Shown: piece by piece, positions 1 through 13,560 of the stretch
How positions within the stretch are numbered: the stretch's first letter is position 1
How the letters are laid out: every line of letters begins with the position of its first letter
NCBI GenBank assembly: GCA_963733035.1
Contig: CAVTBU010000008.1
Coordinates: 320,001 to 384,000 of the forward strand
Source of the DNA: Pirellulales bacterium
GTDB taxonomy: Bacteria > Planctomycetota > Planctomycetia > Pirellulales > PALSA-1355
Reading direction: 5' to 3'
DNA: 64,000 nucleotides
Position numbers and translations under genes: made by a program
Notes under the pieces: model-generated
Databases searched by the model: none
Told to the model about the DNA's origin: nothing
What the model saw: the letters and a program-made list of their open reading frames with translations, nothing else

Positions 1-611
1 TTGGCGCGTATCAAGACGATGGAAACGTCGTCCAGCTTCAATTTCGTCGAGCCGTCATCGTTGATCCACTCAGCCTCGGCCATAATGAAATGGCCGTTAT
101 CCGGCTGGTCGGGCCATTCTTCCGCCCAGCCGTACAATCGCCTTCCATCCTCAAGATTCAAAACGATGTACCGTTGCCCTTCGCAATGGAAGGCGCTGTA
201 CCATTCGCCGGGATAAGCTGTTCGCTTTGTCCAAACCCATCCGGTCGGCAGTTCGCCCTCGGGAATTTTCTCAAAATTCCACCGTCGTGAACTGAGGAAT
301 CCGTGGATGGTGTTGTTGTTCGCGAGCGAAGCAATCGCAAGCCCGAACAAGAGGGCAATTAACAGCGACCAGCCGAGCGCCACGTCGGTGGTCCAGTCGC
401 CGAGAATGAACGTCACCTGCCCCAGCCAAAAAAGAAGCTGACGAACGATTGCCGTGAGCACCTGAATTATGGCGCTGAACACCAGCGCCTGAACCGTGCG
501 CTCGAATTGGTCCCGTCTCGGGTGAGCCGTGAGTCCGTAGAAGACCCATGCCGCGAGAAACCCCGGCATGAGGGCCAGAACGATGGCGATGATGTCCTTG
601 GAAGGAAGCAT
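1..611 (-). CDS. DUF6338-like membrane protein (3'-truncated by window edge; absent from the ORF track)
   Basis: Own translation from ATG 611: MLPSKDIIAIVLALMPGFLAAWVFYGLTAHPRRDQFERTVQALVF...KRTAYPGEWYSAF...LEDGRRLYGWAEEWPDQPDNGHF. The frame stays open to the window edge. Family recalled from motifs. Confidence 0.75.
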   Translation of the reverse strand, partial: MLPSKDIIAIVLALMPGFLAAWVFYGLTAHPRRDQFERTVQALVFSAIIQVLTAIVRQLLFWLGQVTFILGDWTTDVALGWSLLIALLFGLAIASLANNNTIHGFLSSRRWNFEKIPEGELPTGWVWTKRTAYPGEWYSAFHCEGQRYIVLNLEDGRRLYGWAEEWPDQPDNGHFIMAEAEWINDDGSTKLKLDDVSIVLIRA

Positions 612-926
612 TTGCGCAGCCTCAAGTGCCTGTTCACTTGTCCATTAAAGCTAGCAAATTCCCCGATGGGAGGGAAGGCCGATTTTTCGGCCACCCTTGG
701 TTGGCCAATTTGCCGCAACTCTGCTACAGTCCCCACCCCTCGCAACGAACGCAACCAAGGGGCCACGGATGGCACCGCACCCGCTCGAATCTCAGTACGG
801 ATTGACGGCGCTCGAATTGCTGGACGCCATCGGCAGTAGGTTCCGGCTGAAAGATCGGCACTACTCCAAAGATTCGGAACTGAGATTCAGCGAGCCGCAA
901 GAGGCGGCCGGCGAAAAGTTGTTGTT

Positions 927-1715
927 CTAAGGGGCAGTCGGCACAGCGCTTGGGTCGGGTGCGTGCGTCCGCCAATAATCCAAACAGTAAGGATTGATGA
1001 TGGTGATGGGGCCACCGCCGTTGTCGTTTAGGTCCGGGTACATTTGCGTGTATTTGTACGAACTGGAATCAAAGCTAGTCGTGACGTTCTGTCCACGACC
1101 AAAGCTGCCACCAGCACTACCGCTTGTGCTATTCCCCATTGAATAGTAACTGCCTCCAAAGCCACCAGCACTACCGCCAGTAGTGTTGCCATAGCCAAGA
1201 TAGCCGCCATTTCCGCCGAATCCGCCCGTACCAACGCCTACTTGGCGGGTGTTGCTTTTGGCAGACGAGCCGGCCACGTCCATCGTGGTCATGTCGCCAC
1301 GCTCTCTCAGGTATTCCTCATGTCGTACTTTTGCGTCGGCGACTTGTTGCTTGTTGTATGCCAATGCCCAAGCCCGGAATTCGGCATCGGTGCACGTTGC
1401 GAAGTCGATGCCTTTGACAACAACAACCGGTGCAACGATCCGATCCGAGACGGTGACGCCATTGGATAGGATGATTTCCTTGGCGTTGGCGGCAACGGCC
1501 ATCATCACGACCAGTGCGGCTCCAATCAGCCTCAAGAACGGTAAGCGACGTGCGAGACGCAACGTCGCGTGCTGCTCGGGTGTGGGTGATACATGCAAGA
1601 CGCGCGGATTTCCATAATTGGCGTCTCGCACAACGACATGGGCCACACCATCGAAATACGTGATGATGTCTGTTGCCCCAATGCCGCAAGATGCTAACTC
1701 GTGTGTGTGAATCAT
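927..1715 (-). CDS. Hypothetical Gly-rich membrane/exported protein
   Basis: ATG 1715 overlaps the HTH gene stop (ATGA). It has a hydrophobic segment LIGAALVVMMAVAANA and a Gly/Ser-rich tract. Confidence 0.65.
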   Translation of the reverse strand: MIHTHELASCGIGATDIITYFDGVAHVVVRDANYGNPRVLHVSPTPEQHATLRLARRLPFLRLIGAALVVMMAVAANAKEIILSNGVTVSDRIVAPVVVVKGIDFATCTDAEFRAWALAYNKQQVADAKVRHEEYLRERGDMTTMDVAGSSAKSNTRQVGVGTGGFGGNGGYLGYGNTTGGSAGGFGGSYYSMGNSTSGSAGGSFGRGQNVTTSFDSSSYKYTQMYPDLNDNGGGPITIINPYCLDYWRTHAPDPSAVPTAP

Positions 1716-1906
1716 GGTTGTTTGCCCTTCAATTCGAGTTTGAAGAAATCGCACAATTTCTGCGCAGCGTTGAGACTCAATCCCCTAGTCCCTACGCGAA
1801 AACGTTGGATTGTTCCTTGGTCAATTCCAGTCTGGCGGGCAAGGTCCAAATCGTTTCCATGTTCCTTGACCTTGCGACGTAAGGTCTGTTCGATTTGCTT
1901 GGTCAT
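1712..1906 (-). CDS. Small XRE/Cro-type helix-turn-helix regulator (64 aa)
   Basis: MTKQIEQTLRRKVKEHGNDLDLARQTGIDQGTIQRFRVGTRGLSLNAAQKLCDFF, with an AGGAGA RBS upstream. Confidence 0.8.
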   Translation of the reverse strand: MTKQIEQTLRRKVKEHGNDLDLARQTGIDQGTIQRFRVGTRGLSLNAAQKLCDFFKLELKGKQP

Positions 1907-1924
1907 TGGGCTTCTCCTATTTGA

Positions 1925-1994
1925 ATTATGGCATTCTGCCATACCTGCGACAAGCCCTATCCTATGGAATATAGCCATATGGCACAATTCCAAT
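1925..1994 (-). promoter_or_regulatory. Sigma70-like promoter with three TATGG-N7-CCATA operator-like sites
   Basis: Minus strand TTGTCG-N17-CATAAT (1953-1925). Inverted-repeat sites at 1927-1943 and 1963-1979, plus a degenerate one at 1978-1994. Confidence 0.6.
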
Positions 1995-2126
1995 GTCTGG
2001 CGGGTCCGATTGTGCCTAGCGGTCAAAGCAAGTGATATGGCCGATCTTGATGGAATCAAGGTTGCTTCGGTGTAATTCCAAGCAAGGCTAGAAGTAGGTC
2101 AAGACTTCCAACTTGGAGCTACTTCA

Positions 2127-2423
2127 ATGACAGACTGGCAAGACATGAAAGTAGGGGAACTCGCGGACGTGATAGGCGTCCCGGCCTGCAAGGTCTATAC
2201 CGCCTTGCTCCAACTGAGAAACCAACAGCGAGCCCAAGCAATGCAGAGTTGGGAACTGGTCGCCGCATTCGAGCGACATGGCGTGCCGAAGCAAGACCAC
2301 CGCGCCCTTACACTGCTTATCAGGCTGGGGAAAGCCTCACGTCGTTTGCAGGCGCGACGTGCTGAGTTTCAGTCTTGCCTAAACGAAATCTGGGGAATCA
2401 TAACCAAGCGTGAAAAGTGCTAG
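2127..2423 (+). CDS. Hypothetical protein, possible N-terminal HTH
   Basis: 98-aa ORF with GGAG upstream; MKVGELADVIGVPACKVY resembles an HTH. Confidence 0.5.
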   Translation: MTDWQDMKVGELADVIGVPACKVYTALLQLRNQQRAQAMQSWELVAAFERHGVPKQDHRALTLLIRLGKASRRLQARRAEFQSCLNEIWGIITKREKC

Positions 2424-2432
2424 AATTCAAGT

Positions 2433-2609
2433 ATGGATGAAGACCAGCAAGCCGAACTAGAAATGCACCTTGCCGCCGGAACCGACATTCCGACCGCCTT
2501 CGCGGCTGTCCAAGGCGACGAACCGCCGCAAGGGCGGGGCCGATTCGTGGCAACCACAATCGGCGTGATAGTGGCCTTGCTTTTTATGATTCTCTGGCTC
2601 TGCGCATGA
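2433..2609 (+). CDS. Small single-TM hypothetical protein (58 aa)
   Basis: Own translation MDEDQQAELEMHLAAGTDIPTAFAAVQGDEPPQGRGRFVATTIGVIVALLFMILWLCA; starts 9 bp after the previous stop. Confidence 0.5.
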   Translation: MDEDQQAELEMHLAAGTDIPTAFAAVQGDEPPQGRGRFVATTIGVIVALLFMILWLCA

Positions 2610-2685
2610 AAAACCCCAACTGGCCGAAGCCAGTTGGGGGCAATCATGGTGCAACAAACCATGCTTGTGCGACTGTTGCACAGCG

Positions 2686-3707
2686 CTATTCGATCTTGAA
2701 ACCGAATTGTGCCGCCTGTCTACCTCGGAAGGTGTCCAAGGGCCGGTCGTGTCGGGATTCGTCTCAAAGATTTCAGACTTTTGAACGTAATCGGTACTGC
2801 CGATGGTTTGGGCTGAGCCTTCCCCGGTCGTCGTGCCGCTCTTTGCTAGTAGCTTCACGTCTAGCGGGCTCGCGTCCGTTTGTCGGCAAACTGTGTTGAC
2901 CGTGACAGCAAAAACTTGACTGACGTTGACCAAGTTTTGATGGTCATACAAGTCGATGTCGCTGGCGGCGCCCGTCACGTAATCCGTGTCATCGTTAGCC
3001 GGGTTGTCATCGACGAGCGCATAGTTGTCGGTCCCGGTGCTCGGCGTACAGTCAACCGCACCATCCCCATTTGGAAAGGTGGTCTGAACCTTAAACGACC
3101 CAAGAAAGTCGTTGTTCGTCGCGCCGCTTTCGTCCAAAACGTAGAAGTCATCAAAATGAAACTGCACCCCAAGGATATTTGATCCCACGATGCGAATGGC
3201 ATTTGTATAGGCGTTGCTCGCGGGCTGGGTGTCGATGCCCGTGGCCGACAGCAGGGTTATGCCGTTTACACGCAATTCGTACTCGCCGGCCGAGTTGTCC
3301 ACCTTGACGCGCAACTCAACTGTTGCCCAAGTATCGACGGGCAAGACTTGGCCGCTAGTCGTGGCAAGATGCGTGGTGTCGAAATAGATCGACCATTCCC
3401 CGCTTGTTTGTCGCCGCAGATTGATTCCGACGTTGGAACCGTCGAGAAACTCGCAGATTCGTGACTCCGCAGCGATTGCGAATGCCGCTTTGAATCCGAA
3501 GCCACAGATTAGTGTTTGTGTCGCTGGAAGCGAGACACCACAAAAGTTAGCCGGGTCAAGGCTGACGGCTTTCCCGCTAATGCGACCATCACGCACACGC
3601 ATGAAGCTAGAGATACTGCCATCGGTCCATTTACGTGCCATACCGCTAGGCGTGACGTTATTCGTTGCACCATAGGCGTCAAAGCCGTCAATGAAGATGA
3701 TCGACAC
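2686..3707 (-). CDS. Phage structural/tail-like protein with ConA/LamG-like beta-sandwich (apparent frameshift near 2716)
   Basis: MSIIFIDGFDAY start; W.TVELRVKV...YELRVNG and FDDFYV motifs. An alternate frame gives the natural-looking end (NPDTTGPWTPSEVD)AAQFGFKIE*. Confidence 0.6.
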
Positions 3708-3812
3708 AGTTTAGGATTCCTTCCTTGGTTGGGGCTTGGCCGGTGGAGCCGCACACAAGACTTCGATGTAAACTATTTCTTTTTCTGACATGGTGATTCC
3801 ATTGTTGTGTAG

Positions 3813-3853
3813 AAATAAAAAGCGTCGGGGCACTGGGTGCGGTACCCCGACGC
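3813..3853 (-). terminator. Intrinsic terminator
   Basis: GCGTCGGGG/CCCCGACGC stem followed by TTTTTATTT on the minus strand. Confidence 0.6.
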
Positions 3854-3896
3854 ACTGTCGGGCTGCGAGGATTCACCCCGACAAGTTTCGCAACGG

Positions 3897-4673
3897 CTAG
3901 GCCGTTGTCTCTCCGCTGATTTCTTCGGGCTCAGCTTCGGGCTGTTCGATTGTCTCGCGTACTTCAGCGGCGGCTAGCTTCAGTTTCTCCGACTGTTCGG
4001 CCAGCGCATCCGACCTTTCCGTGAGCACGGCTGTGCGCTCAGCTTCAAAGGCAGCATTCGCTTTCCAGAATCGTTCCGTGTCGCCTGTCTCAGTGAGCGT
4101 CCGCAGTTCGCGGCGATAATTCTCCAACCACGGTTGACAAACCGGGTCGGGGTTTGTGCTGAGCCTCGCTATCCAAGCCTGTCCATACAGCTTCGCATCG
4201 ACTACTTCTGTCGAGTTCAACTTGGCTTGGTGAGCCTCTTTCCCCGCGAGTTGGACATCGAAGGCGTCTGCTGACTTAATGGCCATTTCCAATCGCATCT
4301 TGATGCCGGCATGTTCGCGGGGCGGTCGGTTGGCCAACTCGCGTTCCAAGAAATCCACTCTGGCGCGGTAGGGGTTGTCTGTCTCGGATCGTTGAGTTGA
4401 GCCTTGGCCGCCCCCGTCCGTTTTGATCTTTTCTCGCAACGGACGGGCATCCTTTACAAAATCGGTATTGCGAAGTAGCTCGGAGGGTGTCAACTCGCGG
4501 CCAATGGTCGCAAGGGCTCTGGCTTGCGTAGCCTCGACAATTGCATTCGTCTCACGCTGCATTTCACTCTGTTGTGCGCGCGCTTTGTCGCCTGGCTTGT
4601 TCTTGTCGAATTTGTAGGTTCGGCGTTGGCCGCCGATATACGAAACGAATGAATCACGATTCACGGTGTACAT
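3897..4673 (-). CDS. Hypothetical alpha-helical protein
   Basis: 258-aa ORF, Ala/Glu/Lys-rich with an acidic tail; no recognisable family. Confidence 0.75.
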   Translation of the reverse strand: MYTVNRDSFVSYIGGQRRTYKFDKNKPGDKARAQQSEMQRETNAIVEATQARALATIGRELTPSELLRNTDFVKDARPLREKIKTDGGGQGSTQRSETDNPYRARVDFLERELANRPPREHAGIKMRLEMAIKSADAFDVQLAGKEAHQAKLNSTEVVDAKLYGQAWIARLSTNPDPVCQPWLENYRRELRTLTETGDTERFWKANAAFEAERTAVLTERSDALAEQSEKLKLAAAEVRETIEQPEAEPEEISGETTA

Positions 4674-5476
4674 GGTTTTCCTCGATAGGGTAGTGTATCA
4701 GCCAACGCGCCTTCCGCTGGTACAGGCCGGCGTCGCGCATAGTCTTGGTCAAGAATGCTTAGGGTGCCATCCCACGATTCGGATTCGATTCCCGGCGCAA
4801 TGCTCCAATGGTTGACGCAATCACGGGCGTCTAGTGGTACATCGACGCCATCAAGATACTTGTGGGACTCGGATGGGTTGTGCTGGTGTAGGAACCAGAC
4901 ACGTTGCCAGAGCGATTCGAGCCCGGCATCTAGCTGCACGACAGGCGCGATCGACGCACAAGCGATAACCTCGCAACTTGGCGCGAGTGTGTGTGCATGA
5001 ATTTGATTTGCCACGTCTACCTTGATCATGGCTTCATGGAGATATGATAAATGCGTCCAACTCAAATCATGCGGGATGCGAACGATTTCTAGTTCGCTTC
5101 GTAGGATCGCAGCCCGCCCGATTCTCGGCTCTAAGTAATCGTTGAATCGACCGCGAATCGCGGCTAGGCCGAACCCGATTCGCTTGCGAATTGGAACGTG
5201 ACGCTTGGCAAGATCGGCTTGCCAAGTCGCTCGCCAGTATCTCCGCTCACGTTCCCAAGCAAACCTTCCGTCGGCAGTTCGTTTGCCATTGCACTTGGAC
5301 AGAGGCCCAAGCGTGCGAGGGTCAACTTGCTGGCAGCCGGGGAATCGTCGCGGCCAACGTGCAAGGTCGGCGAAATAGATGCGTCGGATTATCTTTGGCG
5401 TGCTTGGCTTCTGACCACGAGAATCTGGCGGGTCATCAATCTGGACAAGGCACAACGTCATCGGCGGCCCAGTCAT
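4661..5476 (-). CDS. Hypothetical protein
   Basis: 271-aa ORF overlapping the next gene in the same-strand operon. Confidence 0.6.
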   Translation of the reverse strand: MTGPPMTLCLVQIDDPPDSRGQKPSTPKIIRRIYFADLARWPRRFPGCQQVDPRTLGPLSKCNGKRTADGRFAWERERRYWRATWQADLAKRHVPIRKRIGFGLAAIRGRFNDYLEPRIGRAAILRSELEIVRIPHDLSWTHLSYLHEAMIKVDVANQIHAHTLAPSCEVIACASIAPVVQLDAGLESLWQRVWFLHQHNPSESHKYLDGVDVPLDARDCVNHWSIAPGIESESWDGTLSILDQDYARRRPVPAEGALADTLPYRGKPCTP

Positions 5477-5682
5477 AGGACCGGGCGAGCGGTATGGTAC
5501 TACAGCCGTCTAGCAAGGGGCCGGGGCGCACAGAATCGCAGGGGCTTGCCGTCGTAGAGATACTGCCATGTACTCATTTGCTTTCCTTGACGGCTTGTGC
5601 CTTTTGCTGAGCGGCTTTGCGTTCGGCTTCGCGGGCTCGCTCATTGGCTGCTGCATTGGCCCTTGCAATTTCTATCTCTCGT

Positions 5683-6239
5683 TTAGTAGGCATCGGAATA
5701 CCTCGCTTGACTGGCCGCGAGCGCGTCGCGGGCTTCGATGGTCTTACGTCGGCACGCTTCGACGCTGGGCCGCCAGCCGGGCGGTAAACCTATAGGCGGG
5801 GGCGTTGGTGCGGGCATGTTGCGAGTGCTCTTGAAAAGCCCCGGTTGCCATTTCTGCAAGCTTGTCAATCGCGCCGCTCTGGCGAATGACGATGGCCTCG
5901 AACGCACTTCGCAGAATCGATACGCAACTCGCGGCAACGTCCAAAGCGCCAGCCGCCTTAGCAGCGCGGATACAGCGACCTAAAGCATCGTCGGCCATTG
6001 GACTAGCCTCGCAAGTAATTGAGGCGAGCGGCCATGTCGCGGACGGCCAAGTCGTGGCTTGATCCGGCGGCACTGGTTAACTGGTTGAGGCAGTCAGTCA
6101 CCGGATCGTCGCTTGTCGGTGATGCGTCAATCAGAGCGAGCAATTGGAGTACGAGCATCGGGTATGCGGACTCCACGCTCCCGGCCGGGGATGCGCCTTG
6201 TGCATATCGCTGATACAGTTTAGTTGGGGCGTTTGCCAT
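5683..6239 (-). CDS. Hypothetical protein, apparently split by frameshifts
   Basis: MANAPTKLYQ... continues through successive overlapping frames (6003-6320, 5744-6073, 5683-5937); true end uncertain. Confidence 0.4.
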
Positions 6240-6316
6240 CGAAAACCTTTCAAGGAATGACGCGAAGTGTGAATGGCGGCCCGTTGCGTCGGATCGGTGC
6301 CGCTTATTTAAGAACG

Positions 6317-6613
6317 TCACGAGTGGGGAAATCTGGGCAGACTAAAGCCACTCGTGACGTGAGCCACACCACCCCCACGTCGGCTTTGGATGGTTGCCGT
6401 GCTACCGGCCGGCTCGGCAAGGCGGTCGTTACGCCTTGCTGCTTCGTTCGCGGGGATAGAGGGAGATCGTAGAGAGACACGCAAAGGCGTTGTGCTGTAA
6501 GCAGAATCTTTTAATGCTGCATCCTGACACGATTCGCAGATTCCTTCCCTTGTGTAAACTTTCAATTCGTTCGTTTTGCACACTGGGCAAAGGTCATCGG
6601 GCTTCACTGTCAT
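6317..6613 (-). CDS. Small CxxC...CxxC zinc-finger protein
   Basis: CPVC...CESC; start uncertain (possible ATGA coupling at 6597 with an indel). Confidence 0.45.
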   Translation of the reverse strand: MTVKPDDLCPVCKTNELKVYTREGICESCQDAALKDSAYSTTPLRVSLRSPSIPANEAARRNDRLAEPAGSTATIQSRRGGGVAHVTSGFSLPRFPHS

Positions 6614-7223
6614 ACCTCTTGAGGATCGCTTTCAATCGTTTTTTCACGTCGGCCTCTGTGAGCCCGAGATGCAAAGCCACGTCAGCCGGGGAGCCGCCAT
6701 GCTCGCATAGGCGGATAATTTGTTTGTCGGTTTCATCTTGGCAGGCGTGGTTGAGTGAGTCGCGCACTTCCAAGAGCGTTGTCGGATCGGCGACTTCGGA
6801 GCAGACGGTAAACTCATTCAGCGTGGTTGTGTCTGGCGGAAAATCATCCTCAATACCATCGAGCTTTCGACGTTTGAGCGTACGGGCAGAGTAGCCGCGC
6901 GGAACTGGCCACGCGGTTCGTCGAATTGCTGACTTTACGCACGTTGCGATATAGGCGTCTGGATTCTCGTGCTTTTTTCCGAGTAGAGCGTGTGCCGCTT
7001 CAACGACGGCAAGCGTTGCCTCGCCGTTCAACTCGTCGGCAAGGTATCGGCGGTCGGGATTCAGTCGCAGAAATTTTCGGACCTGCCCCAGAGCGGCCGT
7101 ACCATTGTCGAGGATAATTTTTTCGATCCATCTTTTCTCGGCGGCCGTTAGTGCAGCGAGAGCGTCATTGTCTTTGTTCTTCAGGTGGACAGCCCCGGTG
7201 CGGGGCGGGCGTAGATCATGCAT
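6594..7223 (-). CDS. Sigma-70-like factor (region 2 + region 4), element-encoded
   Basis: Region-2-like ADELNGEATLAVVEAA...YIATCVKSAIRR and region-4-like DKQIIRLCEHGGSPADVALHLGLTEADVKKRL; start approximate. Confidence 0.65.
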   Translation of the reverse strand: MHDLRPPRTGAVHLKNKDNDALAALTAAEKRWIEKIILDNGTAALGQVRKFLRLNPDRRYLADELNGEATLAVVEAAHALLGKKHENPDAYIATCVKSAIRRTAWPVPRGYSARTLKRRKLDGIEDDFPPDTTTLNEFTVCSEVADPTTLLEVRDSLNHACQDETDKQIIRLCEHGGSPADVALHLGLTEADVKKRLKAILKRYDSEAR

Positions 7224-7231
7224 GGTGTGAT

Positions 7232-7489
7232 TCACGGGAGAGGAGGGGCGGGCGGGTTCGCCTTTGACCGCTGAGAAGCAATCGAGACGCCATTGGTCGA
7301 GCGACCTTGGGCGGCAGCGAGACGTTGAGCTACTACGCGGTCGTGATCTTCGCGCGTGTGCAAGGTGCCGATCGGAAAAAGGCCATGCTTTGACTCGAAT
7401 CCGTAGAGAATCCAATGTTCCATCACGCCATCCGGGCGGGTGATGGTCTTGTCTGGATAGACCCAGGGCGGGGGATTGCGTTTGGACAT
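7232..7489 (-). CDS. Hypothetical protein (85 aa)
   Basis: MSKRNPPPWVYPDKTITRPDGVMEHWILYGF..., ending just before the sigma-like gene. Confidence 0.4.
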   Translation of the reverse strand: MSKRNPPPWVYPDKTITRPDGVMEHWILYGFESKHGLFPIGTLHTREDHDRVVAQRLAAAQGRSTNGVSIASQRSKANPPAPPLP

Positions 7490-7577
7490 GAGGCGAGCGA
7501 GGGGAGGGACGCGAGAGTGTGCGCAGTAAAGCGACAGTAAAGCATACGGCAAAAACCACCTTTTCTTCACCGCGTGG

Positions 7578-7627
7578 CAAAGAAAACGACCCGCCAGAGT
7601 CAAAGAACCATGACTCTTGGCGGGTCG
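7578..7627 (-). terminator. Probable intrinsic terminator
   Basis: CGACCCGCCA-GAGTCA/TGACTC-T-TGGCGGGTCG stem, then TTTTCTTT on the minus strand. Confidence 0.55.
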
Positions 7628-7659
7628 GGTGGATGCGTCACCGCGTCGATGCGGCTGGG

Positions 7660-8037
7660 CTAGTTGGCCGAAGGTATGCCAGCCCAGAAGCGGCCGTCGT
7701 GGTCGCCCGGAACAAAGATCAAGGCAAACGTGCGTCCTGGGTTGTGCCACGTTGCAGGGTCACAATGGAATTGGAGTCCGTTCGCTTTGGCAAATTCCTC
7801 ACATACTCGCAATCGGTCGGCGGTGACTGAGTATGGCTGTGCAACGAGACACGGCACGCCGCTATAGAGGTTAGTCGATCCCCAATGGTCGAGTAGCCCA
7901 CCACTCAACTGCCGCGAGATGTATTCCTCCACGGCTTCCACGTGCAAGTCTTGTGATTTTCGCACGGCTTGTTTGACGAACGTCGGAAACTTGGCTTCAT
8001 GGCCAGATTTGATCGGTGCAAAACATGGATGGCTCAT
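7660..8037 (-). CDS. Hypothetical phage-like protein
   Basis: 125-aa ORF with LDHWG...QPY...WHNPG motifs and an ATGA-coupled start. Confidence 0.65.
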   Translation of the reverse strand: MSHPCFAPIKSGHEAKFPTFVKQAVRKSQDLHVEAVEEYISRQLSGGLLDHWGSTNLYSGVPCLVAQPYSVTADRLRVCEEFAKANGLQFHCDPATWHNPGRTFALIFVPGDHDGRFWAGIPSAN

Positions 8038-8126
8038 AACTTCTCAAACTCCAAGGGACTATTGCTTGCCATCCATGTTGAAAGTGTGCTCCATACAATC
8101 GAACGTATTGCCGTTGCTGAACTCAT
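8034..8126 (-). CDS. 30-aa microprotein
   Basis: ATGA overlaps with the neighbours on both sides; MSSATAIRSIVWSTLSTWMASNSPLEFEKL. Confidence 0.45.
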   Translation of the reverse strand: MSSATAIRSIVWSTLSTWMASNSPLEFEKL

Positions 8127-10197
8127 GCGGCTGCCCCTTTCAAAAGGAAACCTGGGATGGTCTTAGTTTTGGAACCACGATTCGGTACTTGCCCGGCGAC
8201 AATATCTTCAAAAGGCAAAAGTGAACTCACCCGTTCTCTGCCAAGTTGTGACCGGACAGCAAGCGAACTCAACGTAAGCCCCTTGGGGTGTGCGGCGAGT
8301 ATCGCACGAATGGCCGTGATGTCTTTGTCATCCTCGCTCGCTTTCACTTCGGCGATTTCCTCTTGGTCACTGACAAGAGTTGGAATCCAGACACGCCCCC
8401 CTTCGTCAGAAAGTGACCGTTCCTCGATGTCAAGGTGATGCTCGCTTGCATGACCAGCACTGCCACCCAAAGTCATCCATAGTTTGTGTGGCTTGTTGGG
8501 AACGAATTTCGCGCGTCTGTTGAGCAGAATCCATTGCCGTGCGAATTCGCTGAAGCCCGACATTGCAAGGTCTTCGAGCGCCAACGCTTTCCCTGTTTGG
8601 CAGCCCCTTTGACGCTGTGATGTGCGATGGCCAGTTGAGCGCCGTGCTCTTGCATGACGAGTTTATTGCGCAATAGTTGGCCTTGCGCGAACACGTTGCT
8701 CGGGTCGCCCTCCCCGATGCAAAGATAGAACGGATCAATAATCAAAAACTCAATTCGATGACGCTCCAATGTCCGGGTAAGTTTGGCGAGAGACGATGGA
8801 TCATTAGCTTGTGGTAAATCTTCTGACCATTTAAGCGCGTCCAAATCACACGCTTCAAGTGTGTGACGCCAACCGATACGAATGGCCGTCTCTTGTAGTG
8901 TCTGGATGCCAGACTCGCCGCTCATAACCAAAGTTCGGCAGTGTTGGTTGACCGGGAAGTGACCCAGGAAAGGCGACTTCGACGCGAGCGAGATTGCAAG
9001 GTCTAGTAGAACTGAAGTTTTCATCGCCTTGCTTGCGCCACCAGCAACGAGTGGCTGCCTCGCGACAAGCACCTCGGGGATTAACCATTCAACGTCATAG
9101 TCGCCAGTCGCCAGTTCCCAAGATGAAATGACTTTGAATGTGTCGTCAGCGTCGGCGGCGTTGCTGGTAGTGGGCGGTTGCCAGCCATCCTGCCGTGCGA
9201 GGTAGAACAGCGTGGCAACCTTCGCGCCATCGTCTCTCCCGAAAGACTTCCAACGATTCTTGGTTTCGCCGGGCTTGTACTTGGCTGAACTCTTGGACAA
9301 ATCGTCCCACAACGGTAGGTATTTCTCTGTGCCATCACCGGCATCGTGGAGAGCGGAACCGATGCGAAGCCAATCGTGGCAATCGTCGAAACGCTTTGGG
9401 TGTAGTGCGGCAGCAGCCAAATAGATTTGTTGTGGCGTGTGGGAAGTCGAGGATAGCGAGTCGTACCAGTCTTCCTGTGGCTGGGCTGTTGGCAAATGGG
9501 CTGTTGGCAGCATGGCCACAAGCGTCTCGCGTGTAAGCGTCTCGCGAGTCGCGGGGCACGATATGATGGTTGACTGCCGGTGTGGACGATCTGGCGTGTT
9601 TGGCCCTTTCCGATTCCAGTTGCCGGTGCGTTCTCGCATTAGCTGACTCAGTGTCCACACTGAGTCGTCTACCGTGACCTCGGGTATGCTGAATTTGTCT
9701 CGAATGTGAAAGACAAATGCTTTGACAAGCTGGTTGTCTGCTACTGGCAGGTCACAGGCGAAGTAGGCTTGCACCCCGGAACCGCTATCGACAATCAGCG
9801 GCTCGGGGAACCCATGTTCCCGGCAGTATTGGATTGCCGCGTCGGCAACCGCTTTGGCAGCAGCACGTTCGCCGTCCGTGGCCGATACGCCTTTCGGTCG
9901 CACGGGGTCGAAGTCGAGCGGGAGGGTGCGAATTCTGACGATATGCTTGTCGCTGGTGCAAGCACCGATCCTGGCAGAATCATATCGGTTGGTGATGGGC
10001 ACCGAATCGTCAATCTGGTTGACCGTCCAGTGGACCCCACCACCCGCGAAGTCGCTCACGTCGTCTATCAGGCGGGCGGAGTCGCGGTAGAAGCCACTGA
10101 GGCGATTCCCCGCCATGTCATAGGGGCGGATTTCTACCGGGCCGGTCGGGTGTAGAAACTGGTGAGCGAGACGGACATCATCTGCTGGTGTGTTCAT
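8123..10197 (-). CDS. Primase-like/PriCT-2/AAA_25 (RepA-type) helicase fusion (apparent frameshift near 8588)
   Basis: N-terminal LDFD...DSGSGVQAYF; PriCT-2-like DWLRIGSALH...WDDLSKSSAKY...RWKSF; Walker A GASKAMKTS, Walker B IIDP, IAHH. The C-terminus continues in frame 8123-8584. Confidence 0.85.
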
Positions 10198-11004
10198 CAA
10201 AAATTCCTTACTTGTTCGACGCGGGTGGGTTGGTTTTGGAGTGAAACCAACCGAAACCAACCCCCTTGAAAATATGTGATATTTCCCGAGAGATTTGCAT
10301 GTTTGGGTTAGTGTGTAATTAGGTCTGTCTATAGGGAAAAACGCCAAGACGTTTTTCCCCGCCGACAGACACTTGACGAGAGGGGGTTTGAGGTTGGCGG
10401 AGTCTGCTAAAAACACACCCAACCAACCTAGAACCCCCTGCTGTATTGATTACGAGTCAATTTCGGGCAGCATTTTGAGAAACTTCCCGAGAGCGCCAAG
10501 AATCCTCCGACCACCCGCCAGCCGACGCGGCAATAAGCCCCTCCAATGGGACAACGGTCGTTATCGCCCAAGACTGCCAAGGCGGCCTCGCGGTTACAGA
10601 CCGAACCACACCTGTACATTAGTACATTCACTCACAACCCGCAAACACGCCACAATCGACAAATTCGTCACAGTCACCCCAACCAGCTCAGCCGGCAAAC
10701 TCAGCACAATCGACAAACATGCCACAACCGCCCCGCGCGGCCGGTCAGCGAGGGGTGGCGGTTGTCGGCGGTTGTCAGTACCACGGCGAAGCCGTGGAAA
10801 TCCCCTAGAAAACAAGGGGTTTTGAGACATAAGACCACGGATTCTGTATCCGTGTGTTGTTCTGGCAGTCGGCGTCGGGCAGTCAGCGTCGGGCGGGCGA
10901 GGGTGGGGTGGGGTCAAATGTCGGGGCAATGCCCACTATGCCGGTCGTAGCGACGGCCCTGCCCTATCCCGACTGGCTGGGGGATTTTGAAGACCGGACC
11001 ACCG

Positions 11005-11025
11005 CGTGGATAAGTATTGTCCACA
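11005..11025. promoter_or_regulatory. Inverted pair of DnaA-box-like 9-mers
   Basis: CGTGGATAA-GTA-TTGTCCACA; each has one mismatch to TTATCCACA. Confidence 0.5.
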
Positions 11026-11161
11026 AAACGCTTTAGGATGGCCTAGGACGCTTCGGCGCGAATAGTGGTGTCATTCGACCTACCTGCCACTCGCCCACCA
11101 TCCTGGACGCTCACAGGCGGCCCGTGCGGCGAATGCAGCCCCTATTCGCCGCACGTCGGCA

Positions 11162-11289
11162 GGTCTGCGGGCGGGCGGGTCTGCGGGCGGGCGGGTCTGC
11201 GGGCGGGCGGGTCTGCGGGTCGGCAGGTCTGCGGGCGGGCAGGTCTGCGGGCGGGCAGGTCTGCGGGCGGGCAGGTCTGCGGGTCGGCA
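11162..11289 (+). repeat. Eight tandem 16-bp repeats (GGTCTGCGGGCGGGCR / GGTCTGCGGGTCGGCA)
   Basis: Counted directly; organised as two 64-bp blocks of 3+1 units. Confidence 0.95.
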
Positions 11290-11446
11290 CAACCGGACCC
11301 TGTCGGCAAAAGAATCGGCTGCAAGCGCCAGATTCTCAAAATGCGGGTCGCTCTCATTTCGTCTCCATTATGTACCGCTAATCGAGTTACCGACCCGCCG
11401 GCCGCCTTGCGGGCCGCCTCTCACTTCCCCGAATCGAAAGCTGACG

Positions 11447-11890
11447 ATGTCACTTTGTAGAACCTGCGGCGAACCGCTCCGAACCACGGGTTCGGAGTGC
11501 GAAGATTGCATTTCCAATCGACGTGACGCTCGCCCCGCCCGCCGGCCCACCCCCGACGCCTCCGATCCACTCGGCGGCCAGCGGCGAGCGGTCTATGAAA
11601 TTCTGATTGCCAAAGGTGTCCAAAACCCGATCACAATTTGCGATGAAGTTTTTGAAAAACTCGCACGCGATCTACCAGAAATGCTGAAAGCCCGTGCGCT
11701 TCAGGCGGCCGGGCTGGCGGAACGCGAGCCCCGCACGGACAACACTACCGGGCATCAGGGCGTTGACCGGCACAGAGGGAAATTCCGGGCACGGGTCTGG
11801 CGTGGTGGTCGATGCGTTTGGCAACGGTCCAGCATCGACCTAGACCGGGCGGTAGCCGCGAGGGCGAAGTATCTGGCGGACCACCCATGA
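11447..11890 (+). CDS. Zn-finger + AP2-like DNA-binding protein
   Basis: CRTC...CEDC at the N-terminus; C-terminal DNTTGHQGVDRHRGKFRARV...DLDRAVAARAK is typical of phage AP2 domains. Confidence 0.7.
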   Translation: MSLCRTCGEPLRTTGSECEDCISNRRDARPARRPTPDASDPLGGQRRAVYEILIAKGVQNPITICDEVFEKLARDLPEMLKARALQAAGLAEREPRTDNTTGHQGVDRHRGKFRARVWRGGRCVWQRSSIDLDRAVAARAKYLADHP

Positions 11891-12106
11891 CGACATACAC
11901 GACCGCCGAAGTCGCCGGAATCTTGAAGGTGTCGCCGGACACGGTACGCGGCAAGATACTGTCGCGGCCAGCTTCAAGCGTTGAACTTGGCCGAGCCCGG
12001 CCATCGCCCGCAGTATCGCGTCACAGCCGAACAACTGGTAGCGTACCAGCGGCGGGCTACGGTCCTATTGCCTATCGCAATGGGACGACCGCGACGGTCA
12101 GCTTGA
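11887..12106 (+). CDS. HTH_17 excisionase-like protein (apparent frameshift near 11961)
   Basis: MTTYTTAEVAGILKVSPDTVRGKIL plus alternate frame RGQLQALNLAEPGHRPQYRVTAEQLVAY; ATGA-coupled, convergent on the integrase. Confidence 0.75.
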
Positions 12107-13336
12107 CCATTCGACCGGGGCGAAGCCGTCGCGGTCGTGTCGCTTCAGCTTTTCCTCGCCGATATACCAGCGGCGGACAAATGAACTGACTTCAACCAGC
12201 CGCTCAGCATACACACGCTGACGATACAGCCCCGGCATGGTCGAATCTTTGTGCCCCATGATATGGTTTGTGGCCGGCTGGTTGCCCGCTGCTGCCGCGA
12301 CCGTGGCAAACGTCCGCCGAAGCCCGTAGAAGCTGGTCGTGCCCTTCTTATATATGCCCAACTCAACTAGCAACTCTCGAAACGCTTCTGAAATGTGGTT
12401 GAAGCATTCGTCTTGATCGACCCATGCGCTGCCATCGGGGCGTAAGAATACAAGGTCACTGTCGCTCTTGGGACGAACCGCGACCGCTGCCTTGATGGTT
12501 TCCACGACTTCAGGCCAGAGCGGGGCGTGCCGTTCGGTGCCAGTCTTGAAACGTGGCTTGTGGTGCCAGCCGGCTTTAAGGTCCAACTCGCCGAATTGTA
12601 GGGTTCCGCAGTCGGCGTTGCTGAAGGCACACGACAACCCCAGCAAGATCATGGCCCCGAGTCCCGGGTCAGCCGCCTTGACCATTGCTTGAATTTCGTC
12701 AGCCGTGAAGTCTCGGGCACCGCGAGCTAGATTCAGCCGATGGAATTGCAGCCGGCCGGGCGGGGCTAATGCCTGTTGGTATCGAAGCGGCTTTTCAGTC
12801 AGCCCGTTTTCGACGATGTACGCAAACAGCATGGTTGCCCGGTTCAAGTGTCCCTTTTGCGTGGTCGGGTTGAGTAGACCACGTTTCTTGCGTGGCAGTC
12901 TGCGCTTCGGGTCTTTGGCCAGCCGCCTAGCTTTTCCCTTTTCGATGGCCCCGGCCATTCGCTGGAAGTCAGCCGCTTCAAGTGAAGCAAGCGGGGTGTT
13001 CTCATTGACACCCATCGTGAGCAATTCACACGTTCGCTTGTAATCGCTCAGACTTCGTGGGGTCAGCTTCCCGCCATCGACGCGAGCCTGTTTGAAGTCG
13101 AGAAAATGATTGATCGCTTCGCCCAGCGTATAGCCGCCGATAGGCTGTTGCTCGCGGCCGGCGTGAAGTCCGTCGCGCTGCTTCACGTATTCATCAAGCG
13201 CGGCTTGCCAGTCGGGCCATCGTCCGAAGTAGTGAATCTTGCCCCGTATCTTTTTGCAGTAGCGACCATCAACACGGAGGGACAACGGGAAGTCTTTGTA
13301 CGGTGGGTCTGGTAGGTCAGTGGCGCTCTTGAACAT
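12098..13336 (-). CDS. Tyrosine recombinase/phage integrase
   Basis: Arm-binding-like N-terminus; KT, YGLRRTFAT, IMGH and GLY motifs; adjacent to a tRNA. Confidence 0.92.
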   Translation of the reverse strand: MFKSATDLPDPPYKDFPLSLRVDGRYCKKIRGKIHYFGRWPDWQAALDEYVKQRDGLHAGREQQPIGGYTLGEAINHFLDFKQARVDGGKLTPRSLSDYKRTCELLTMGVNENTPLASLEAADFQRMAGAIEKGKARRLAKDPKRRLPRKKRGLLNPTTQKGHLNRATMLFAYIVENGLTEKPLRYQQALAPPGRLQFHRLNLARGARDFTADEIQAMVKAADPGLGAMILLGLSCAFSNADCGTLQFGELDLKAGWHHKPRFKTGTERHAPLWPEVVETIKAAVAVRPKSDSDLVFLRPDGSAWVDQDECFNHISEAFRELLVELGIYKKGTTSFYGLRRTFATVAAAAGNQPATNHIMGHKDSTMPGLYRQRVYAERLVEVSSFVRRWYIGEEKLKRHDRDGFAPVEWSS

Positions 13337-13439
13337 GGCGGTTGGCTCCGAGTTGCGTTGGTCTATGCAACTCTATGCCCGTTTCGGACCGCTGGTTGTC
13401 AAAACGGTTGTCAGATGCCAAAAACGGCCGCCAGAAACG

Positions 13440-13467
13440 AAAAAAGCCAGTGGCGTAAACCACTGGC
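13440..13467 (-). terminator. Terminator after tRNA-Phe
   Basis: GCCAGTGG/CCACTGGC stem plus T6 on the minus strand. Confidence 0.7.
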
Positions 13468-13487
13468 ATCATTCAACTTAGGCGAAG

Positions 13488-13560
<73 letters not shown>

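Follow-up and report, generated by a model that had tools for sequence, protein, structure and literature searches.

The DNA analyzed here is a window of 64,000 nucleotides from a Pirellulales bacterium (C8:320001-384000 of genome G000; contig CAVTBU010000008.1), and its first part is occupied by a capsid-less integrative element bounded by two attachment (att) sites. The element has its own replication gene and a core of family genes (ORF258, ORF271, o84 and o58) that was not found in the siphovirus lineage with which it has a tail-tip gene in common. We regard this 15.9-kb element and its Pirellulales family as likely satellites of one temperate siphovirus lineage, and consider it quite probable that the lineage in question is the one represented by prophages in genomes G083, G131 and G194 and by the metagenomic phage contig L359. 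From gene content we infer excision, replication, packaging by a helper, a role for ORF258 and a use of the predicted tail-tip lectin in particles, although this copy may be damaged. The initial annotation, made from the window alone, had proposed a planctomycete phage satellite or minimal integrative replicon, and this is supported.

Boundaries and gene content

Integration occurred at the anticodon loop of tRNA-Phe, as evidenced by a perfect 44-bp copy of the 3' half of this tRNA at C8:317568-317611 (E 2.6e-18); the 6.65-Mb genome has no other. The initial annotation had asked for this duplicate upstream and had put the element at 13.5 kb; the actual length is 15,918 bp from att to att, of which the first 2,433 bp precede the window and hold small cargo open reading frames (ORFs) only, with no head or tail module of an ordinary prophage. 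With an integrase and a duplicated tRNA fragment at the far end, the element is a tRNA-integrated mobile island, and we take the start of att at the anticodon loop to agree with a known class of tRNA crossover sites. Its GC content is 56.2%, vs 60.3% for the genome. The host genes flanking it are syntenic in two congeners, and none of three congeners carries it at this site: G002 has the tRNA without an att duplicate, in G003 the site is taken by another island, of 14.9 kb and with a terminase, and the contig of G001 stops 1.5 kb beyond the tRNA. Syntenic conservation of the element's own genes, raised initially as an objection to a satellite, was not seen. Note that tRNA-Phe is an integration hotspot in relatives, where the islands found at it (L029, L043-L048, L068, L036) include one of 33 kb that resembles a prophage, one of 9.7 kb that encodes a capsid and one of 14.9 kb with TerL.

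Library scans of 22-27 ORFs of the element returned an integrase, PriCT_2 with AAA_25, HTH_3, DUF6338, DUF6173 and phrog_2448, as well as weak sigma-70, HTH_17 and Ogr_Delta matches, and no lysis family scored. The integrase next to the tRNA, the convergent excisionase gene xis, the repeat-rich noncoding block of 1.25 kb, the primase-helicase, the sigma-like gene and the tail-like gene, now assigned to phrog_2448, had all been named from the letters alone, and each was found again (Table 1). The same holds for the lack of head genes, with no capsid, portal or terminase match in 27 ORFs (Pfam, PHROGs) or 24 ORFs (NCBIfam); the capsid, portal, terminase and tail tube of a prophage are not recognizable in the element. 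TerS gave no match in Pfam, PHROGs, NCBIfam or with the TerS-like profile of the family, AlpA and MerR none in Pfam and PHROGs (the element does have an HTH_3 gene and a xis that is HTH_17-like), and Sid and Psu none in Pfam, the P4-like core being confined to an Ogr_Delta match in the far arm at a sub-cut-off E of 0.007. No capsid-morphogenesis gene was recognized in the element, and no relaxase family among 27 ORFs in the Pfam scan, which did not include a search for oriT. Genome G000 as a whole has no match to Phage_capsid, Phage_portal or Terminase_6N, and a single TerL, on C9.

The ORF258 family and its candidate helper

ORF258 has no usable match in Atlas, PDB, Pfam, PHROGs or NCBIfam, and with them no family or structure. 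A single-sequence search found it in 6 of 301 genomes, a profile in 16 of 401 genomes of the order (21 loci) and in 173 clusters at 50% identity in a library of 1.84 billion; pattern scans of viral or metagenome contigs gave no relatives. Our family matrix holds 22 elements, 19 with ORF258 and three brought in through the lectin or integrase gene; two ORF258 loci are not in it, since the called proteins of G016:C86 are those of its G013 counterpart and G067:C40 is cut by a contig end. Both ends were located in 13 elements, 11 by att repeats at tRNA-Phe, -Val, -Met, -Arg, -Ser, -Gly or -Asp, while two split comM. These complete elements measure 11.9-16.7 kb, vs about 2-96 kb for the att-bounded tRNA islands of G000 itself. 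Not one of the 22 matches the candidate-helper profiles for capsid, scaffold, portal/terminase (one merged profile), tube, chaperone or large tail-tip protein, and blastp of 374 element proteins against 130 helper-region proteins was equally negative for these. Among 157 proteins called in ten complete elements, none of 107 further ones matched head-and-packaging PHROGs, in a scan that skipped integrases, resolvases, methylases and the like, the others being scanned separately.

The closest sibling, G024:C16, resides in another genus at tRNA-Val, with a different integrase and primase and no lectin gene. ORF258 and ORF271 are 85-88% identical to it in DNA, and the ratios of nonsynonymous to synonymous substitution (dN/dS) for four common genes, 0.25, 0.14, 0.20 and 0.26, indicate purifying selection on the core across genera. 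With a dS of 0.35-0.38 for two core genes, below the 1.22 of iscS between congeners, the comparison points to recent transfer between genera. Two further elements from two genera, L163 (G013:C39) and L164 (G016:C86), have identical called proteins over the first 34 residues compared, and reflect either very recent transfer or mis-binning.

The candidate helper shares genes with these elements. Its type of capsid is present in 7 of 401 genomes and 119 IMG/VR stretches, and G194 houses both an ORF258 element and a helper-type prophage. The lectin gene has matches in 7 of 301 genomes, and in G083 and G131 it lies inside complete prophages that also encode major head, scaffold, portal, TerL and tape-measure proteins. 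Element proteins that match these prophages comprise tape measure, lectin, TerS-like, tail-fibre, primase and sigma-like proteins (the last at E 6e-11 to 2.5e-5 for the copy studied here) and a 100-aa protein, whose gene adjoins portal/terminase genes in the phage. Tape measures occur in the elements of G016, G156 and G095 and as fragments in G148 (4/22), a TerS-like gene lacking the weak HGGxSTG domain of the phage copy in 5/22, and a tail chaperone in none of the 22; at least one homolog of the virion or packaging operon is found in 10 of the 13 complete elements. The slot behind the tape measure is taken by the lectin gene in prophages G083, G131a and G131b and by a fibre-like gene in G194 and G131c, as it is in 14 and 5 of 80 IMG/VR loci, respectively. 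The elements likewise carry the lectin gene (5/22) or the fibre-like gene (3/22), never the two together.

This copy has its lectin gene in common with the phage lineage. The closest relative of the gene is on L359, a phage contig of the candidate lineage, two genes behind the tape measure, with 211 of 330 residues identical (64%) and 66% DNA identity over 849 bp; the copies of other elements reach 44-45%. A homolog in Brevundimonas phage Fanboy stands two genes behind a 'tip attachment protein', and phrog_2448 homologs reside in phage tail modules. The structural model is a concanavalin A (ConA)-like beta-sandwich with a mean confidence (pLDDT) of 61, rising to 80-93 over residues 81-160. Generic lectins and lyases are its best matches (Z 16-17), and the phage Douge baseplate (Z 15.6, root-mean-square deviation 3.2, 176 aligned) and J-1 Dit CBM2 (Z 14.0) also align; the predicted fold by itself assigns no role. 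In an unrooted tree of 18 rows the element copy pairs with L359 (support 100/99) and that of G047 with L362 (96/97), the latter two being labelled by gene context on short contigs. Earlier trees had grouped the element copies, and a satellite-only lectin clade was rejected after L359 and L362 were added (p-AU 0.0001). The gene was exchanged between elements and phage lineage more than once. That the protein is built into particles is a real possibility, but one we would put somewhat below an even chance.

Integrases and primases are freely exchanged among family members and the cargo ends bear restriction-modification and other defence-like genes, and both features would suit a self-replicating island without a dedicated helper that moves by vesicles, generalised transduction or transformation, as proposed for cargo tycheposons, and picked up phage genes by chance recombination. 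Such an island would also account for the three complete members without a virion gene and for the failure to recognize a packaging gene in this element. The borrowed genes, however, match one phage lineage and mostly its virion and packaging operon, the size is constant at 12-17 kb, and the lectin gene was exchanged with that lineage more than once; we judge this explanation unlikely.

The profiles of ORF258, ORF271, o84 and o58 matched none of the 80 IMG/VR loci of the phage lineage, whose span around the capsid gene does not exceed 21 kb, which limits this negative, and in six prophage regions they gave one weak ORF258 score only (E 0.016). The result bears on whether the element could have arisen by decay of a G083/G131/L359-lineage prophage, with loss of the head and most of the tail genes. 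Lineage homologs of the lectin and sigma-like genes here, and of primase, tape-measure and TerS-like genes in relatives, are what such decay would leave behind, and genes are broken in this copy. Yet the core is missing from the phage loci searched and is subject to purifying selection in different genera, the att sites are intact at both ends, the primase of the element is not of the phage type, and the layout recurs at seven kinds of tRNA gene and at comM with different recombinases. We hold decay to be highly improbable for this element, and for the family as a whole it is largely refuted.

State of this copy and relation to known satellites

Several points weigh against a satellite of this lineage. 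Family members were chosen by ORF258 or shared genes, three of them by lectin or integrase, which inflates the share of helper-type genes, and several relatives are kin or near copies. The complete elements of G024, the closest sibling, G001 and G194 (3/13) carry no virion-operon gene, so that the lectin must be dispensable. No helper-type prophage was found in G000, the assembly being 92% complete, and a comparison of noncoding DNA with three helper regions gave no match that could represent a common packaging site. The genes of the element include no recognizable TerS, Sid, Ccm or TcaP, and the tape measure, a part shown to matter in PLEs, is missing from this copy. In addition, 4 of 14 genes checked against homologs are frameshifted (xis, primase-helicase, the lectin gene about 10 codons ahead of its end, and o84), several indels crowd into about 110 bp of o84, and the deletion of the methylase cassette at 769-930 is genuine.

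We further compared the assembly with that of G003 and found shifts in 24 of 129 conserved host genes (29 in 54,247 aa), or about one per 5.6 kb, a rate that predicts about 1.6 shifts in the 9 kb checked, where the element shows four shifted genes. On these figures, assembly error can explain much of the frameshifting. The o84 cluster looks worse than that rate, and the lesion at 769-930 is real; both genes involved, the 203-aa gene and the N6/N4 methylase gene, are whole in the G014 element. In an assembly this indel-prone the four frameshifted genes may or may not reflect decay, and a functional copy in G000 has about even odds. Other reports of broken genes in G000 should be weighed against the same background of about one shift per 5.6 kb of conserved coding DNA.

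If the element is a satellite, infection or induction of a helper-type phage would lead Int and Xis to excise it, and the primase-helicase would then replicate the excised form. Core proteins would divert the heads or the packaging motor of the helper, the sigma-like protein would time the late operon of the element, and the lectin-fold protein would either become part of the borrowed tail tip or compete with the one that the helper encodes. A rival explanation is that of an anti-phage island whose tail-tip and tape-measure copies would serve as decoys and ruin the tails of the helper, any transfer being incidental. In its favour, Rta of PLE11 blocks helper tail assembly (PMC12987554), and Tai systems are described as interfering with tail assembly (PMC11364771). 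Since PADLOC gave one weak match only among 22 ORFs (the HTH gene, E 0.008) and the lectin gene is of full length and closely resembles that of a phage, we rate the decoy explanation as very unlikely.

Returning to the satellite, its gene content and the published descriptions make the PLEs of Vibrio cholerae, especially PLE11, appear the closest in style. In the account of PLE11 (PMC12987554), that element is integrated and self-replicating, uses helper capsid proteins (as this one would, judging from its genes) and has its own versions of helper tail parts, of which the tape measure and baseplate hub were detected in its virions. Those parts are TMP, TAC and BhuB; here they are the predicted tail-tip lectin and, in 4/22 relatives, a TMP. 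The element has neither TMP nor TAC, and with them lacks the own tape measure and chaperone of a PLE-like chimeric tail. The PLE helper ICP1 is described there as lytic with a contractile tail, whereas the candidate helper here is of a temperate siphovirus type. As the satellite-made tail parts shown experimentally for PLE11 are, in that text, a tape measure and a baseplate hub, a tail-tip adhesin swapped with the helper would extend such parts to host recognition.

The element resembles phage-inducible chromosomal islands (PICIs), the comparison drawn initially, only loosely. A length of about 15 kb is within their size range. As modelled in SatelliteFinder (main text of PMC10085698, where the term 'planctomyc' is absent), the likeness consists in integrase, primase-replicase (frameshifted in the assembly), tRNA site and length, and the difference in a missing match to AlpA/MerR/Stl, capsid-morphogenesis genes and TerS and in the presence of a tail gene, which the model forbids. 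With no TerS match and with a tail gene, the element is not a PICI by that definition. EPIPs of Mycolicibacterium aichiense are tape-measure satellites dependent on a temperate helper, but all of them are described as having TerS, head-tail adaptor and stopper, a major capsid protein and a serine integrase (PMC12822802), none of which was found here; the own major capsid and head genes of cf-PICIs and EPIPs are thus lacking. Tycheposons of Prochlorococcus, as described in bioRxiv 10.1101/2020.12.28.424599, share a tRNA-targeting integrase, excisionase and primase/helicase and have cargo and phage-parasite variants; their PICI-like forms carry a major capsid protein or TerS, whereas this element has neither but a tail-tip gene.

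No description of planctomycete satellites was found in the literature searched, which covered few subscription papers, and the marker gene ORF258, the candidate helper and the tail-tip exchange are new here. With ORF258 as a marker the family can be searched for, and phages of the G083/G131/L359 lineage can serve as the candidate helper in tests. We tentatively propose an undescribed phylum-level family of satellites, marked by ORF258 and parasitic on one large Pirellulales siphovirus lineage, that would repeatedly capture the tail-tip (receptor-binding) gene and sometimes the tape measure, and thereby set the host range of the stolen particles.

Features of the element and neighboring islands

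Table 1. Features of the element inside the window, in window coordinates.
Feature	Position	Strand	Remarks
DUF6338 gene	1..611	-	extends past window start; then DUF6173 and other small cargo up to far att
Deletion scar	769..930	+	first 28 codons of 203-aa gene fused in frame to last 25 codons of N6/N4 methylase
262-aa orphan cargo ORF	927..1715	-
Divergent pair: HTH_3 gene 1712-1906 (-), 98-aa gene 2127-2423 (+)	1712..2423		three ATGG-N7-CCA(T/A) repeats between
o58, 58-aa family gene, hydrophobic C-terminus	2433..2609	+
phrog_2448 gene, predicted ConA-like lectin fold, tail-tip type	2686..3707	-	64% to phage contig L359
ORF258, family marker, 258 aa	3897..4673	-	87% to G024; dN/dS 0.25
ORF271, family gene	4661..5476	-	91% to G024; dN/dS 0.14
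o84, small family gene	5683..5998	-	cluster of apparent indels
78-aa ORF	6003..6239	-	conserved in G024 (43%)
Sigma-70-like gene, 209 aa	6594..7223	-	TIGR02937 E 2e-4, below cut-off
Two orphan ORFs (125 aa, 85 aa)	7232..8037	-	no family match
Primase-helicase (primase-like N-domain, PriCT_2, AAA_25)	8123..10197	-	split by frameshift ~8587-8593
Noncoding block, 1,249 bp	10198..11446	.	hairpin 10323-10370; direct repeat 10635/10689; 16-bp tandem array 11158-11283
147-aa ORF	11447..11890	+	C-terminal part matches HNH-endonuclease PHROGs; 49% to G024 sibling
Excisionase-like HTH (xis, HTH_17-like)	11887..12106	+	convergent with int; frameshifted near 11960
Tyrosine integrase, 412 aa, open frame	12098..13336	-	PF00589 E 1.6e-12; phrog_1
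att core, 44 bp	13486..13529	-	starts at first base of tRNA-Phe anticodon loop; twin at C8:317568-317611, 15,918 bp off
tRNA-Phe(GAA), integration target	13487..13560	-	Rfam: sole match above gathering score

Homologs of the integrase at E<=1e-15 occur in 24 of 61 genomes, G000 included. In all ten aligned integrases, that of the element and nine homologs, the first catalytic arginine position, which we placed by an assumed motif, is occupied by a different residue (consensus LGINCGFGNxD), whereas R262-x-K264 and R340 do not vary and H362 and Y371 hardly do; integrases of this type appear to have an atypical tyrosine-recombinase active site. The 147-aa ORF is presumably AP2-like. Both halves of the primase-helicase are joined in one protein in 14 homologs, and a programmed -1 frameshift on GGGAAAG, which we take to be a slippery heptamer, was rejected, as these homologs are unsplit and the genome contains 705 copies of the heptamer.

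A codon-model caller gave one weak 60-aa call only in the noncoding block, where the 16-bp unit is repeated 7.9 times and the direct repeat measures 46 nt. Three sub-blocks are 73-88% conserved in the G024 sibling, whose primase differs, and the array is missing there, which rules out conserved iterons; the idea of the repeat block as an origin was not borne out. The three repeats between the divergent genes (1928-1993) are operator-like, though the motif was picked post hoc and has 254 such sites in 6.65 Mb. In the far arm before the window (L001:17774-19660) a 151-aa orphan, DUF6173, a zinc-finger ORF (the weak Ogr_Delta match) and short Pro-rich ORFs lie behind DUF6338; the single-sequence model of the 151-aa ORF was too poor for use (pLDDT 49).

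Elsewhere in G000, tRNA-Ser is the site of another att-bounded island (C8:70174-86986; 16.7 kb), which encodes an AAA_25-type helicase homolog and no ORF258, and a small island on C9 (about 212700-223200; L105, L106) has a serine recombinase, TerL and DUF2213 and no capsid match. An array of 44 tRNA genes on C6 (241456-268483) includes a second tRNA-Phe, and a similar array adjoins a primase homolog in G032. In G001, a tRNA-Met island (L037, on C32) with a related primase N-domain, an HTH gene and an o58-like gene adjoins cas genes (PF09617), which suggests CRISPR-Cas cargo.

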